From Nanobdellota archaeon (GTDB taxonomy: Archaea; Nanobdellota; Nanobdellia; Pacearchaeales; GW2011-AR1), in NCBI GenBank assembly GCA_030648155.1, contig JAUSIK010000008.1:274491-338490 (forward strand): a DNA stretch of 64,000 nucleotides, in the 5' to 3' direction. The translations under genes were made by a program, and so were the position numbers. Position 1 is the stretch's first letter; every line of letters begins with the position of its first letter. Below are positions 8,092 through 16,564 of the stretch, one piece after another. The notes beneath the pieces are model-generated. The model saw nothing but the letters and a program-made list of their open reading frames with translations. It was not told where the DNA came from and ran no database searches.

Positions 8092-8295
8092 ATGAATATA
8101 GTAACAAAAACAAGAAAGCTGGGCGGATCATTGATTATAACAATACCAAAAGAATTAGTAAACGAACAAAATATTAGAGAAGATGAATTAATAGAAGTAA
8201 CTATTAAAAAAAAGAGAAAGGATTATTTTGGGGCCTTAAAAGGAATAGGTTCTTTTACTGAAGAAGATGAACTAAAAAGTCAATTGGACGAATGA
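8092..8295 (+). CDS. AbrB/MazE-type antitoxin (VapB)
   Basis: KTRKLGGSLIITIPKELV...IREDELIEV. Confidence 0.85.
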   Translation: MNIVTKTRKLGGSLIITIPKELVNEQNIREDELIEVTIKKKRKDYFGALKGIGSFTEEDELKSQLDE

Positions 8296-8672
8296 AATAT
8301 ATAATTGATTCTTACGGTTGGATAGAATATTTAAATGGTAGTTTGGTTGGAGAAAAAATAAATAAGATTCTAAAAGAGAATCATGAAATATATAGTGTTC
8401 AAATTTCTATAGCGGAAGTAGTAAGTAAGATAAAAAGAAAAAATGGGAATACTGAAATAGCCTACAATTCCATTATCTCTAATTCTAAAATAATTGAATT
8501 GACTCCTAAAATGTTAAAAGAGGCCGGTCTATTACATGCCGAAACAAGAAAAAAAATAGAAAATTTTGGACTAGTTGATGCAATGCTAATAATTGTAGCC
8601 AGAAACATTAGTGCAAAAATATTAACAAATGATTCTCATTTCAAAAATTTTAAAGAAGCAATTTTCCTTTAG
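8292..8672 (+). CDS. PIN-domain toxin (VapC)
   Basis: YIIDSYGWIEY, SIAEV, GLVDAML, ILTNDSHF; ATGA overlap with the antitoxin. Confidence 0.87.
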   Translation: MKYIIDSYGWIEYLNGSLVGEKINKILKENHEIYSVQISIAEVVSKIKRKNGNTEIAYNSIISNSKIIELTPKMLKEAGLLHAETRKKIENFGLVDAMLIIVARNISAKILTNDSHFKNFKEAIFL

Positions 8673-8713: not shown

Positions 8714-10219
8714 ATGGAATTAGATCAAAAACAAAAGCAAGAATTAGAAGAATTACTAGACATACTTGTAAGTGTAAGAGGCCGTCATACTGAACTAGTC
8801 ACTGTAATGATCCCTGCTGGCTTCAATATTTCTTCAGTTGTTCGCCAATTAGAAGCAGAAAAATCAACTGCAGCAAATATAAAGTCAAAAGCAACAAGAA
8901 CAGCCGTAGAAGATTCTCTAGAAAGAATTATTCGTGAATTAAAAAACTATAAGCAAACTCCAAAAAATGGTTTAGCCGCGTTCGCTGGCAACATATCACA
9001 AAAAGAAGGAGTTCAAGATCTAAAATTATGGTTATATGAACCTGCAAAACCTCTAAATGTAAGAATCTACAGATGTGATCAAGTCTTTATAATCGACCCA
9101 TTAAAGGAAATGCTGGAAGCTCAAGAAATTTATGGATTATTAGTTATTGACAGGCAAGAAGCAACTATAGGCATACTTGAAGGAAAACAAATTAAATTAA
9201 TAACGCATATGACTTCAGGAGTCCCAGGAAAAGTCAGGGCCGGAGGCCAATGTCTCTCTCCTGATACTCTTGTAATAAAAGATAATGGTGAAAAAATAAA
9301 AATAAGAGATATTAAAATAGGCGATAAAATCAAAGCACTAGACGTTCCAAATAGAGAATTAGTCTATACAAAATGTACTAAAATATGGAAAAATACAAAA
9401 AGCAGTTATCTCGAAATAAAAACAAGCAATAATAACTTGCTTATTTTATCAGAAGACCACACTCTATTTATTCTAGAAGGCAATAAACTAAAAGAAATTA
9501 CTGCAGATATGACAATGCAAGGCGCAGTTCTTTTAAATGATAAAAAAGAAAAAGAGTCTATAACAAAAATAACAAAAATAAAAAATAAGATAGGCCTGAT
9601 AGATATAGAGACAATTTCTGAAAATTTCTTTGCCAATAATATTTTAGTGCATAATTCCTCACAGCGATTTCACAGAATTACAGAAGGTCTGGCAAAAGAA
9701 TTCTTCCGCCGAGTTTCAGGTGAAATGAAAAAAGTATTTTTTGAAATGCCTAAATTAAAAGGAATTCTTGTAGGCGGACCAATTCCAACCAAAGAAGAAT
9801 TTCTAGAAGAAGGAGATTTACCAACTACCTTAAGAAATAAAGTAATTGCAGTTAAAGATTTAGGTTATACAGATATGCACGGCCTAGAACTATTAGTAGA
9901 ACAATCACAGCAGGATATTGCCGAGCAAGAATTAGTAAAAGAAAAGAATATACTAGCAAAATTCTTTGAAACATTAGGAAAACATAGGGAAAAAGCAGCC
10001 TATGGTTTAGAAAAAGTTAAATTAGCCCTCCAAAGAGGTGCAGTTGATATTTTGCTAATTTCCAAAAAACTTCCAAAAAATGAGGCAGAAGAGCTAGAAA
10101 AAGCAGCAGCAAACATTGGTGCTGAAATAATAATAATCTCCACAGACAATCAGTATGGAGAACAGTTTCTTAATCTAACAAAAGGTGTAGGTGCTGTGTT
10201 AAGGTTTGCGTTAGAATAA
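8714..10219 (+). CDS. prf1: Peptide chain release factor aRF1, intein-containing (366 aa after splicing)
   Basis: NIKS, YRCD and GGQ motifs; C-terminal GVGAVLRF; 135-aa insertion after GGQ. Confidence 0.95.
   Translation: MELDQKQKQELEELLDILVSVRGRHTELVTVMIPAGFNISSVVRQLEAEKSTAANIKSKATRTAVEDSLERIIRELKNYKQTPKNGLAAFAGNISQKEGVQDLKLWLYEPAKPLNVRIYRCDQVFIIDPLKEMLEAQEIYGLLVIDRQEATIGILEGKQIKLITHMTSGVPGKVRAGGQCLSPDTLVIKDNGEKIKIRDIKIGDKIKALDVPNRELVYTKCTKIWKNTKSSYLEIKTSNNNLLILSEDHTLFILEGNKLKEITADMTMQGAVLLNDKKEKESITKITKIKNKIGLIDIETISENFFANNILVHNSSQRFHRITEGLAKEFFRRVSGEMKKVFFEMPKLKGILVGGPIPTKEEFLEEGDLPTTLRNKVIAVKDLGYTDMHGLELLVEQSQQDIAEQELVKEKNILAKFFETLGKHREKAAYGLEKVKLALQRGAVDILLISKKLPKNEAEELEKAAANIGAEIIIISTDNQYGEQFLNLTKGVGAVLRFALE
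9251..9655 (+). mobile_element. Mini-intein (135 aa, no endonuclease) in aRF1 at GGQ/S
   Basis: Block A CLSPDTLV, block B SEDH, block F LIDIET..NFFANN, block G VHN followed by Ser+1. Confidence 0.93.
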
Positions 10220-13000: not shown

Positions 13001-16000
13001 ATGGATATTATGGATAAGAAAAAGAAAAGAGAGGACCTAATCTTGGAAGCAAAGAGATTCTTTGACTCTCATAAAAAAGAGATAGTAGAGGCAGCAAGAG
13101 AAGGAGAAAGAGTAATAAGAATAAAATTTTCAGACCTTTCAAAATTTTCTCCAGAATTGGCAGATAATTTAATAGACACGCCGGAAGAAACTCTGGAAAT
13201 ATTAGAAGCTGCTTTAGAAGAGTCTGAATATGTAAAAAATCCCAGAATAAGAATTGTAGATCCCCCGCATACAACAAATATATCGATAAGAAATATTAGA
13301 GCAAAGCATCTTGACCAATTTATTTCTATTGAGGGCATTGTCAAACAGGCCTCTGATGTTAGGCCTCAAGTTATTAACGCTAGATTTGAATGCCCAAGTT
13401 GTGGGGCAATACTTTCCGTTTTGCAGGTAGATAGAAAATTTCATGATCCCTCACGGTGTTCATGTCAATGGAAAGGAAATTTTAAACTTTTATCAAAAGA
13501 AATGGTTGACGTACAGCGCCTTGTAATAGAAGAATCCCCTGACTCTCTTGAGGGAGGAGAACAGCCAAGAAGAATAAACGTCTTCCTAAAAGAAGATTTA
13601 GTTGATCCAAAAATGGAAGAAAGAACAACTCCTGGTAGCAAAGCAAAAATCCATGGCATACTAAAAGAAATTCCTGTTCCTCTTCCAACAGGCATATCCA
13701 CTAGATTTGATATAGCATTAGAAGCAAATAATATAATTCCAACTGAAGAGTCTTTTGAAGACCTTAATATTAAAGAAGAAGATATGAAAGAAATTCTAGA
13801 GTTAGCTGCAGATCCTTTAGTGTTTAAAAGATTGTCTCAAAGTATCGCTCCCAGTATATATGGTTTTGAGAAAATAAAAGAAGCGGTGCTTCTCCAAATT
13901 TTTGGAGGCGTCAAAAAAACAAAGTCAGATGGTGGCTCAACTAGAGGAGATATCCATATTCTTCTGGTAGGTGATCCTGGAGTAGCAAAGTCTGTAATGT
14001 TAAAATTTATTTCAACGGTAGGCCCTAAAGGACGCTACGTATCAGGAAAAGCCGCCAGTGCAGCAGGTATTACTGCTTCTGTAGTTAAAGATGAATTTCT
14101 TAAAGGCTGGTCTTTGGAAGCTGGAGCAATGGTATTAAGTAATCATGGAATAATTTGTCTTGATGAAATTGAAAAAATGAGCGAACAAGATAGATCATCA
14201 ATGCATGAAGCGATGGAACAGCAATGTTACCATCCTAATCTAGAAATATCATTTCCAGATGGTTCAAAAGAAAAAATAGGCACTTTAGTAAACTCTTTAA
14301 TGGAAAAATATAAGAATAAAATACAACCAGGAATTAATTGTGAAATTCTTCCTCTAGAGGAAGAGATAAAAGTTTTAACTACTGATTTCGAATCGATCTA
14401 TCCTGCCAAAATAAAAAATCTAAGCCGGCATAAATCTCCAGAAGAATTAATAAAAATAACCCTAAATAATGGAAGAGAAATAACAGTTACTCCAGAGCAT
14501 CCATGTTGGGTAATAAGAGATGGAAAAATAACCACTACTCCAGCTGAAAAACTCTCAAATGAAGAATTTTTCCCAATTCCAGCAGAATTACCTATAGAAG
14601 GAGAAGAACAGACTTTCGCACAAAAACCATGGAAGAACGGGCCTCAATTATGCAAACTTCTAGGGTATCACATAAGCGATGGTTGTTGCGAATTAAATAG
14701 AGGAAAAAAGAACGGAATTCAATTCTCTAACAAGAATAGTGTCCTAATTGAGGATTATAAAAATTCAATTAATTCTTTATTTAATTTAGTTCCAGGCATA
14801 ACAAAAAAGCAAGAGGTATTTTCAGTAAGAGTAATTTCGAAAGAAGTTGCCGAATTTATGCACTCATTAGACAAAAATTTGATGGAAAAAGGAATATTAA
14901 AAGTCATCCCAGATAAAATTATGAAGTGCAAAAAAGAAGATCTTGCATTTTTGTTAAGAGCATTATTTGATGGAGATGGTACTGTAGTTAACGTAAAGAG
15001 AAATGGTCTTAGAATAGGCCTTATAACTGAAAATAAAAAGTTAGCAGAACAAGTTGCTGAATTGCTTCTAAGATTCGGAATAATTTCCTCTATTTACAAA
15101 GATGAAGAGTTTTATAGACTAGATATTACTGGTGAAGAAAATATTTTAAAGTACTATGAAAATATAGGTTTCTTGTCAGATAAAAAACAAAATAGAATTA
15201 AAGAGTATTTATCCAAAACAAGAACATTCAGGTCAGTTACAGATATAATTCCTAATGTGACTCCTGCAATAGCAGACATATTCAAAAAATTAAAAATTAA
15301 TCAGCAAAAGTATTTAGGAAACCAAATTTGTATGAACTGTAATAAACATCGTAATTTTCTTCAAAAAATGACTAAAATAGCAGAAGAAAAAGTAGAAAGA
15401 TTATTTAACGAAAAAGAAAATCTTTTAAAAACCTTGAATACAAAAAAATTAGGGCAAATAAGGAAGAATTTAGAGTTATCTGCCTTATATATTTCAGAAA
15501 AATTAGGTATTTCGGATTATTTATTAGGCGAGAAAGAAAAAAAAGAACTAAATGATGAAAATTATCAAAAAGTCTTGCTGTATGAAATAGAAAGTATGCT
15601 ATCGATACTTCCAACATTAAGAGAAATAAAAAGATTAGCTTTTGGAAAGATAAAATGGGCAAAAATAAAATCAGTAGAGAGAATAAAAGCGGATACAAAA
15701 TGGGTATATGATATCACTATTGAACCTACTCACAGTTTTATTTCAAATAATATGGTATTGCATAACTCGGTTACAATCGCCAAAGCAAACATTCATGCAA
15801 CTCTTCGAGCAGAAACAACAGTTCTTGCAGCAGGAAACCCTAAACTAGGTCGTTTTGACCCTTATACGCCGATTCCACAGCAAATAGATATCTCTCCTGC
15901 CTTGCTCTCAAGATTTGATGTAATATTTATAATTAGAGACCTTCCAAATAAAGTCCAGGATGAAGCAATTGCATCTCACGTATTGCAGGAGCATACTCAA

Positions 16001-16564
16001 GAAGTAATCAGAGACATAGTCAAGCCAAAATTAATGAGAAAATATGTAGCTTATGCAAAACAAAAAATAAAACCAAAACTTACTGAAGAAGCAATAAATG
16101 AGATAAAAAACTTTTATGTGAAATTAAGAAACCAATCAATAAAATCTGATTCAGAAATAAAACCTATCCCAATAACGGCAAGACAGTTAGAAGGAATAAT
16201 TAGGTTAGCAGAAGCTCATGCTAAACTTCATCTAAGAAAAACAGTAACGGCCAAAGATGCGCAAACTGCCATAGACCTTCTAAAAACCTCTCTATCGCAA
16301 GTAGGCTATGATGAAGAGACTCAAACATTTGATATAGATAAGATAACAACAGGAATATCTTCATCAAAAAGAGGAAAAATTGTTCTTGTAAAAGAAACCC
16401 TTTCACATCTAGAGGCCCAATTAGGAAAATTAATACCTATAGAAGAAATAGAAAAAGCTCTTGAAAACAAAATAACAAAACCAGAATTAGATGAAGCTAT
16501 AGACCAATTATCAAAGATGGGAGACATCTTCAAGCCAAAACAAGGATTTATTCAAAAAATCTAA
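13001..16564 (+). CDS. mcm: Replicative MCM helicase, intein-containing (673 aa after splicing)
   Basis: Zn finger CPSC..CSC, Walker A GDPGVAKS, Walker B LDEIEKM, EAMEQQ, LLSRFD, TARQLE. Confidence 0.97.
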   Translation: MDIMDKKKKREDLILEAKRFFDSHKKEIVEAAREGERVIRIKFSDLSKFSPELADNLIDTPEETLEILEAALEESEYVKNPRIRIVDPPHTTNISIRNIRAKHLDQFISIEGIVKQASDVRPQVINARFECPSCGAILSVLQVDRKFHDPSRCSCQWKGNFKLLSKEMVDVQRLVIEESPDSLEGGEQPRRINVFLKEDLVDPKMEERTTPGSKAKIHGILKEIPVPLPTGISTRFDIALEANNIIPTEESFEDLNIKEEDMKEILELAADPLVFKRLSQSIAPSIYGFEKIKEAVLLQIFGGVKKTKSDGGSTRGDIHILLVGDPGVAKSVMLKFISTVGPKGRYVSGKAASAAGITASVVKDEFLKGWSLEAGAMVLSNHGIICLDEIEKMSEQDRSSMHEAMEQQCYHPNLEISFPDGSKEKIGTLVNSLMEKYKNKIQPGINCEILPLEEEIKVLTTDFESIYPAKIKNLSRHKSPEELIKITLNNGREITVTPEHPCWVIRDGKITTTPAEKLSNEEFFPIPAELPIEGEEQTFAQKPWKNGPQLCKLLGYHISDGCCELNRGKKNGIQFSNKNSVLIEDYKNSINSLFNLVPGITKKQEVFSVRVISKEVAEFMHSLDKNLMEKGILKVIPDKIMKCKKEDLAFLLRALFDGDGTVVNVKRNGLRIGLITENKKLAEQVAELLLRFGIISSIYKDEEFYRLDITGEENILKYYENIGFLSDKKQNRIKEYLSKTRTFRSVTDIIPNVTPAIADIFKKLKINQQKYLGNQICMNCNKHRNFLQKMTKIAEEKVERLFNEKENLLKTLNTKKLGQIRKNLELSALYISEKLGISDYLLGEKEKKELNDENYQKVLLYEIESMLSILPTLREIKRLAFGKIKWAKIKSVERIKADTKWVYDITIEPTHSFISNNMVLHNSVTIAKANIHATLRAETTVLAAGNPKLGRFDPYTPIPQQIDISPALLSRFDVIFIIRDLPNKVQDEAIASHVLQEHTQEVIRDIVKPKLMRKYVAYAKQKIKPKLTEEAINEIKNFYVKLRNQSIKSDSEIKPIPITARQLEGIIRLAEAHAKLHLRKTVTAKDAQTAIDLLKTSLSQVGYDEETQTFDIDKITTGISSSKRGKIVLVKETLSHLEAQLGKLIPIEEIEKALENKITKPELDEAIDQLSKMGDIFKPKQGFIQKI
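14225..15766 (+). mobile_element. 514-aa intein with LAGLIDADG homing endonuclease in MCM at EQQ/S
   Basis: CYHPNLEI start, TPEH block B, LLGYHISDG and LLRALFDGDG endonuclease motifs, VYDITIEPTHSF..VLHN/S end. Confidence 0.95.

Follow-up and report, generated by a model that had tools for sequence, protein, structure and literature searches.

An intein interrupts an archaeal release factor gene at its GGQ motif

The window, by which we mean the whole 64,000-nt stretch of a Nanobdellota archaeon genome analysed here, contains a gene for the release factor aRF1 whose single open reading frame accommodates an inserted domain (Table 1). The sequences flanking the insert (exteins) are those of aRF1: the equivalog profile TIGR03676 matches with 360.3 bits (cut-off, 234.7), the Pfam domains eRF1_1, eRF1_2 and eRF1_3 are all recovered, and the aRF1 motifs NIKS (at residue 55), YRCDQVF (YxCxxxF, at 119) and GGQ (at 177-179) are present. 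Positions 2-174 of TIGR03676 align with precursor residues 8-180, and the matches to this profile, eRF1_2 and eRF1_3 restart at residue 314, past the insert. The exteins hence compose a three-domain aRF1 with the same motifs as canonical aRF1/eRF1 (PDB 4af1, 3agk, 1dt9), from which the window precursor differs by a 135-aa domain within the GGQ loop.

The precursor reads ...PGKVRAGGQ/CLSPDTLVIK...NNILVHN/SSQRFHRIT... (slashes denote junctions), which places the insert between Q179 of the GGQ motif and a Ser and puts the catalytic Gln at extein position -1. An initial annotation of this DNA had proposed a mini-intein immediately after the aRF1 GGQ. Its coordinates turned out to be exact and its junction reading (...KVRAGGQ/CLSPDT...ILVHN/SSQRF) is borne out codon by codon, with profiles, motifs and modelled fold in agreement. 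Splicing is predicted to yield an aRF1 of 366 aa and a free intein of ~15.6 kDa. The peptide AGGQCLSPDTLVIK spans a junction of the precursor, and AGGQSSQR is the predicted ligated counterpart.

Table 1 Features of the aRF1 locus and its neighbours in the window
Feature	Position	Strand	Remarks
MazE-family antitoxin gene	8092-8295	+	
PIN-domain toxin gene	8292-8672	+	immediately upstream of aRF1
aRF1 precursor gene	8714..10219	+	single open frame, 501 aa + stop
N-extein, 179 aa	8714..9250	+	domain 1 and start of domain 2, up to GGQ
GGQ codons (GGA GGC CAA)	9242-9250	+	residues 177-179
Class-1 mini-intein without homing endonuclease	9251..9655	+	135 aa
Block A Cys1 (TGT)	9251..9253	+	nucleophile of the N-S acyl shift
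Block B S67-E-D-H70	9449..9460	+	TxxH with Ser replacing Thr; codons read
Block F Asp118	9602..9604	+	IDIET motif; in 45/45 mini-inteins
Block G His134-Asn135 (CAT AAT)	9650-9655	+	
+1 extein Ser (TCC)	9656-9658	+	
C-extein, 187 aa + stop	9656..10219	+	remainder of domain 2, and domain 3
MCM helicase gene	13001-16564	+	3 kb downstream of aRF1
Intein in MCM, 514 aa	~14225-15766	+	LAGLIDADG_3 domain

The intein DNA has a GC content of 26.4%, compared to ~35% in each extein and 31.4% in the window. As GC at third codon positions is alike (18.5 in the intein and ~21 in the exteins), the deficit is attributable to an amino-acid composition rich in Lys, Asn and Ile rather than to a foreign codon signature.

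The insert is a class-1 mini-intein

The insert matched the intein profile TIGR01445 (intein_Nterm) with 36.4 bits (cut-off, 24.5) and Pfam Hint with 35.0 bits (cut-off, 29.7); Pfam Intein_splicing scored 35.3 bits, slightly below its cut-off of 35.8. A profile search for LAGLIDADG, HNH or other endonuclease domains returned none within the 135 aa, in line with the initial annotation, and in alignments the stretch from block B to block F lacks precisely the ~300-aa endonuclease that sister alleles carry. Its length also falls within the 200-aa limit that defines a mini-intein. Aligning the window intein with 44 others from the same site revealed C1, S67, H70, D118, H134 and N135 to be invariant in 45/45. 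Block B has Ser in place of the usual Thr, and still this S67 is invariant. Cys1 also recurs in all 33 endonuclease-bearing inteins (that is, in 78/78 at the site), these alleles likewise keep the block F Asp, and a terminal HN followed by Ser was found in each of the 78 inteins examined. Intein-free orthologs read GGQSSQRF without a break, including the syntenic empty allele L011.

AlphaFold2 modelling of the full-length precursor, from an alignment of 74 sequences, folded residues 180-314 into an all-beta domain with pLDDT values of 90-97, and low confidence (pLDDT <50) was confined to the two junction loops. When the model was compared with the PDB using Foldseek, the exteins retrieved aRF1/eRF1 structures (4af1 at E 3e-32), and the intein retrieved gp41-1, NpuDnaB, the SspDnaB mini-intein and Hedgehog HINT domains with TM scores of 0.80-0.89, as well as BIL domains. 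Sequence searches against solved structures gave weak matches, the best being MjaKlbA at E 0.014. Relative to the closest allele, L012, dN/dS amounted to 0.175 for the intein and 0.058 for the exteins, both values being rough, since dS is near saturation (~1). The insert is a genuine class-1 HINT-fold mini-intein, as opposed to a chance resemblance, and the structural model makes us confident of the predicted HINT fold itself.

Among known inteins of this kind, gp41-1 occurs naturally in split form and has a phage-like origin. In the structural comparison, gp41-1 (PDB 6qaz, 6riz) aligned with TM scores of 0.88-0.89 and an rmsd of 2.1 Å, and NpuDnaB (4o1r) with a TM of 0.84 (rmsd across the two, 2.1-2.2 Å). 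Both share the HINT fold, Cys1, the block B His and the terminal HN with the window intein, are free of an endonuclease, and have chains of 127-142 residues, close to its 135 aa. However, the sequences are no more than 21-28% identical (phmmer E of 0.03 to gp41-1), and host protein and insertion site differ, the window intein lying in the aRF1 GGQ loop and using Ser as its +1 nucleophile. The suggestion that 135 aa is near the minimum for an intein was roughly right, yet same-site relatives reach 131 aa and the gp41-1 chain 127-128 residues. Mini-inteins of Pyrococcus horikoshii are markedly larger (166-172 residues; PMC8229266). The LAGLIDADG inteins at the same site (e.g., the 432-aa intein of homolog P0008), found in the same genus, have homologous blocks A, B, F and G and differ by a nested endonuclease of ~300 aa that the window intein lacks. 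The window element is itself an ordinary class-1 mini-intein; the novelty lies in its host and site.

Translation termination is predicted to depend on splicing

A profile search recovered the window gene as the only aRF1 match in its own genome. An intact aRF1 elsewhere, which the initial annotation had named as evidence against its proposal, was accordingly not found in this 1.25-Mb assembly, although at 88.8% completeness and in 24 contigs a second, intein-free copy is conceivable. With apparently only one aRF1 present, splicing must work. Taken together, the intact motifs, the purifying selection and the single-copy, essential host lead us to infer autocatalytic splicing, and efficient splicing is the only reasonable reading of the combined evidence. 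The dependence of termination on splicing, which the annotation had deduced from the Gln at position -1, is consistent with this apparent lack of a second gene: judged from the sequence, termination competence must depend on the predicted splicing event.

Mechanistically, the gene would be translated as a 501-aa precursor, in which splicing would start with an N-S acyl shift, Cys1 attacking its peptide bond to Gln179. The N-extein would then pass to Ser+1 by trans-esterification, Asn135 would cyclise to free the 135-aa intein, and an O-N shift would restore the native ...AGGQSSQRF... loop. In the precursor, the 15.6-kDa beta-domain within the GGQ loop is expected to block release catalysis, such that GGQ would reach the peptidyl-transferase centre in the spliced 366-aa protein only. 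Since only the spliced form could position GGQ, splicing must be efficient and is probably constitutive. Once splicing is complete, the GGQ glutamine might be methylated by a HemK-related archaeal methylase encoded in the same genome, a candidate that matches TIGR00537 with 130 bits.

Inteins are widespread at the GGQ/S site

The rarity implied by the initial annotation did not hold. Among the 120 best matches retrieved from a collection of 5.8 billion proteins, 78 had an occupied site, and a single GGQ/S position was used throughout. Mini-inteins of 131-144 aa were present in 45 of these homologs, and inteins bearing a LAGLIDADG_3 domain (430-433 aa, bar one of 501 aa) in 33; the other 42 were intein-free and ~366 aa long. 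Endonuclease-bearing alleles, which the annotation proposed to look for in relatives, are hence abundant (33/120). The one 501-aa intein resides in the 874-aa homolog P0047 and has an extra ~70-aa helix-turn-helix segment (HTH, PF01381) before the LAGLIDADG domain.

To gauge prevalence across the order to which the window belongs, we drew on 401 species-representative genomes. Here, aRF1 was detected in 388, and in 53 of these it was split at position 174 of the TIGR03676 model. By frame length and match to the mini-intein profile, which also recognises the N-terminal part of endonuclease-type inteins, 18 of the 53 were of the mini type (frames of ~500 aa) and ~35 of the endonuclease type (~800 aa). 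The window's own genus, with eight genomes, comprises one mini allele (the window's), two endonuclease-bearing alleles and five empty ones. The GGQ/S intein is thus widespread among relatives, not rare.

The gene order MazE-PIN-aRF1 is common to the window and the empty allele L011. The endonuclease-bearing L013 has a matching neighbourhood: upstream of aRF1 are MazE, PIN and two more genes, and downstream is MCM. This conserved context implies that the aRF1 locus is orthologous across allele states. The MazE/PIN pair, a putative toxin-antitoxin module, directly adjoins aRF1 in L011 as it does in the window, and is two genes away in L013 and L014.

At the codon level, the +1 Ser was encoded by TCN in all eight intein-bearing alleles for which DNA was available, and by AGY in 6/16 empty alleles. 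The latter codons might mark endonuclease-resistant sites, in a sample that is small (8 + 16).

NCBI assigns the relatives to Woesearchaeota, Pacearchaeota or Nanoarchaeota. Among the 120 best matches, all intein-bearing aRF1 homologs with an NCBI name are called ‘hypothetical protein’, in contrast to intein-free orthologs, which carry the name ‘peptide chain release factor aRF-1’; the intein therefore appears to defeat automatic naming. Such labels can make DPANN genomes seem devoid of a release factor. At JGI, one allele is labelled ‘peptide subunit release factor 1 (eRF1)/intein/homing endonuclease’.

Intein alleles turn over independently of their hosts

On a tree of the exteins, allele states were thoroughly interleaved, requiring 29 changes; shuffled labels needed 56 on average, and the possible minimum is two. 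Near-identical hosts can differ in allele state: exteins are 99.5% identical between P0013 (endonuclease-bearing) and P0036 (empty), and 97% identical between P0005 (mini) and P0063 (empty). The exteins of P0021 and P0048 are likewise 97% identical, with a mere 2 of 179 residues differing in the N-extein, yet their mini-inteins share only ~36% identity, and the pairwise alignment shifts abruptly at both junctions. The pair represents a clear case of intein allele replacement. More generally, across 990 mini-mini pairs, the identity of two mini-inteins did not follow that of their exteins (r = 0.06). Mini-inteins move between hosts by recombination.

In a tree of the splicing domains, whose resolution is limited by the short alignment (135 columns), a single long branch (support, 100/100) set the mini-inteins apart from the endonuclease-bearing ones. 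The clade of the latter was tight and short-branched, and the mini clade deeper and more diverse; the mean identity between domains of the two types was 33.5%. The long branch and the depth of the mini clade mark the mini-inteins as an old, separate lineage. The same two features led us to discard the notion that the window's mini-intein arose by a recent endonuclease deletion from the co-circulating intein.

A selfish homing cycle best explains the allele pattern

We consider it very probable that the window harbours a splicing-competent, selfish class-1 mini-intein without homing endonuclease in the GGQ/S site of an apparently single DPANN aRF1. Three allele types share one site and are incongruent with the host phylogeny, a pattern that fits a selfish homing cycle of the Goddard-Burt type rather than a dedicated switch. 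At the population level, the site cycles among empty, endonuclease-bearing and mini alleles. A homing endonuclease target would be expected to lie at the gene's most conserved codons, as this insertion does, and because imprecise loss would be lethal there, long retention of the intein is expected as well. One feature exceeds this scheme: the mini clade has evidently persisted for long without an endonuclease of its own, which a purely selfish decay model alone does not predict.

It is possible, and we put it forward tentatively, that the mini-intein is a non-autonomous element which spreads through the LAGLIDADG endonuclease of the sister lineage acting in trans, the empty allele being cut and the mini allele serving as repair template. 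This proposal refines the selfish homing cycle and is not mutually exclusive with it. The two intein types occupy the same site, are both found in a single genus and form sister groups in the intein phylogeny, mini-inteins have been swapped or gained and lost between exteins that are 97% identical, and their identity is decoupled from that of the exteins, all of which speaks for such mobilisation. However, plain homologous recombination after DNA uptake would generate an equal pattern with no endonuclease involved; moreover, activity and target specificity of the endonuclease are predictions from sequence, and the 135-column alignment constrains what the intein tree can tell. That the mini-inteins form an old, self-sustaining lineage, maintained through the sister endonuclease in trans or, less likely, retained since their splicing kinetics gate release-factor supply, strikes us as rather unlikely. 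If maintained in trans, mini-inteins would parallel non-autonomous transposons and amount to a ‘parasite of the parasite’.

Other inteins of archaea and bacteria, such as those of RadA and DnaB, are known to splice conditionally. With such precedents, the aRF1 mini-intein could have been domesticated as a conditional switch (responding to redox state, metal, temperature or the like) that gates termination post-translationally, and the initial annotation had raised redox or metal control. The position of the intein, next to the catalytic Gln of an essential single-copy factor, lends this idea some appeal, for termination would respond to whatever alters the rate of splicing; so does a mini lineage that is old, diverse and under purifying selection in the absence of an endonuclease. 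Purifying selection, however, is to be expected of any intein in an essential gene. The extein flanks (RAGGQ/.../SSQRF) contain no Cys, and the +1 residue is Ser. The sole internal Cys, C42, is conserved in 36/45 mini-inteins and replaced by Val or Ile in the other nine, as expected of a buried hydrophobic position, and it was for this substitution pattern that we dropped Cys42 as a conserved disulfide partner of Cys1. Neither a conserved partner Cys, as in a redox trap, nor a metal-binding set, as in a metal gate, was found across the window intein and its 44 relatives. Five of the eight genomes of the genus, close relatives all, do well without the intein, and near-identical exteins have unrelated inteins or none. 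Together with the homing-cycle pattern of alleles, these observations argue against redox or metal control and render a domesticated switch of any kind improbable.

Finally, it is most improbable that the intein is splicing-dead and aRF1 a pseudogene or dominant-negative decoy, with termination resting on a factor missing from the assembly: the incomplete genome and the sequence-based prediction of splicing leave some room for this, but all catalytic residues are intact and invariant, the frame is open over 501 codons, the rough dN/dS values are 0.058 (exteins) and 0.175 (intein), a second aRF1 was not found in the genome, and 18 species genomes of the order, all of them with a split aRF1, have the mini type in aRF1-sized frames of ~500 aa.

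Release factors as intein hosts

EF-2 is an archaeal intein host. The inteins of archaeal aIF2/IF-2 and EF-2, like MjaKlbA (2jmz/2jnq), PhoPol-II, PhoRadA and PhoCDC21-1, resemble the window intein in lying at conserved functional motifs of essential proteins and in having canonical splicing motifs. The hosts of these inteins are P-loop NTPases or replication proteins, unlike aRF1. In the main text of a 2016 survey by Novikova et al. (PMC4760082), aIF2/IF-2 appears among the intein hosts, core translation components are said to contain few inteins, and release factors are unmentioned. Our full-text literature search found no description of an intein in aRF1 or eRF1; a paper on Bodo saltans virus mentions both eRF1 and inteins, but separately. 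The view taken in the initial annotation, that aRF1 is not known as a classic intein host, agrees with the literature we found, in the case of the 2016 survey with its main text, where aRF1 is not named as a host.

A class-I release factor hence joins the list of intein hosts, with insertion exactly at the residue of peptide release. Inteins as a rule insert into the most highly conserved catalytic motifs; the present case conforms to this rule and carries it into the core of translation. With three allele types in one genus and swaps between near-identical hosts, the GGQ/S site offers a compact natural system for the homing cycle. Protein engineering might also draw on these natural mini-inteins, which are 131-144 aa long, come from mesophilic groundwater archaea and are predicted to splice in cis.

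Further inteins in the window and genome

A second intein is present in the window, within the MCM helicase gene downstream of aRF1 (Table 1). Its junctions read ...MEQQ/CYHPN...VLHN/SVTIA..., and the MCM orthologs adjoining aRF1 in L011 and L013 are 670 aa long and have no intein match. Across the 1.25-Mb genome, seven intein N-terminal matches, six of them above the cut-off, fall in frames of 799-1602 aa at loci L004-L010 on contigs C1, C3, C4 and C9, so that inteins are numerous for a genome this small.
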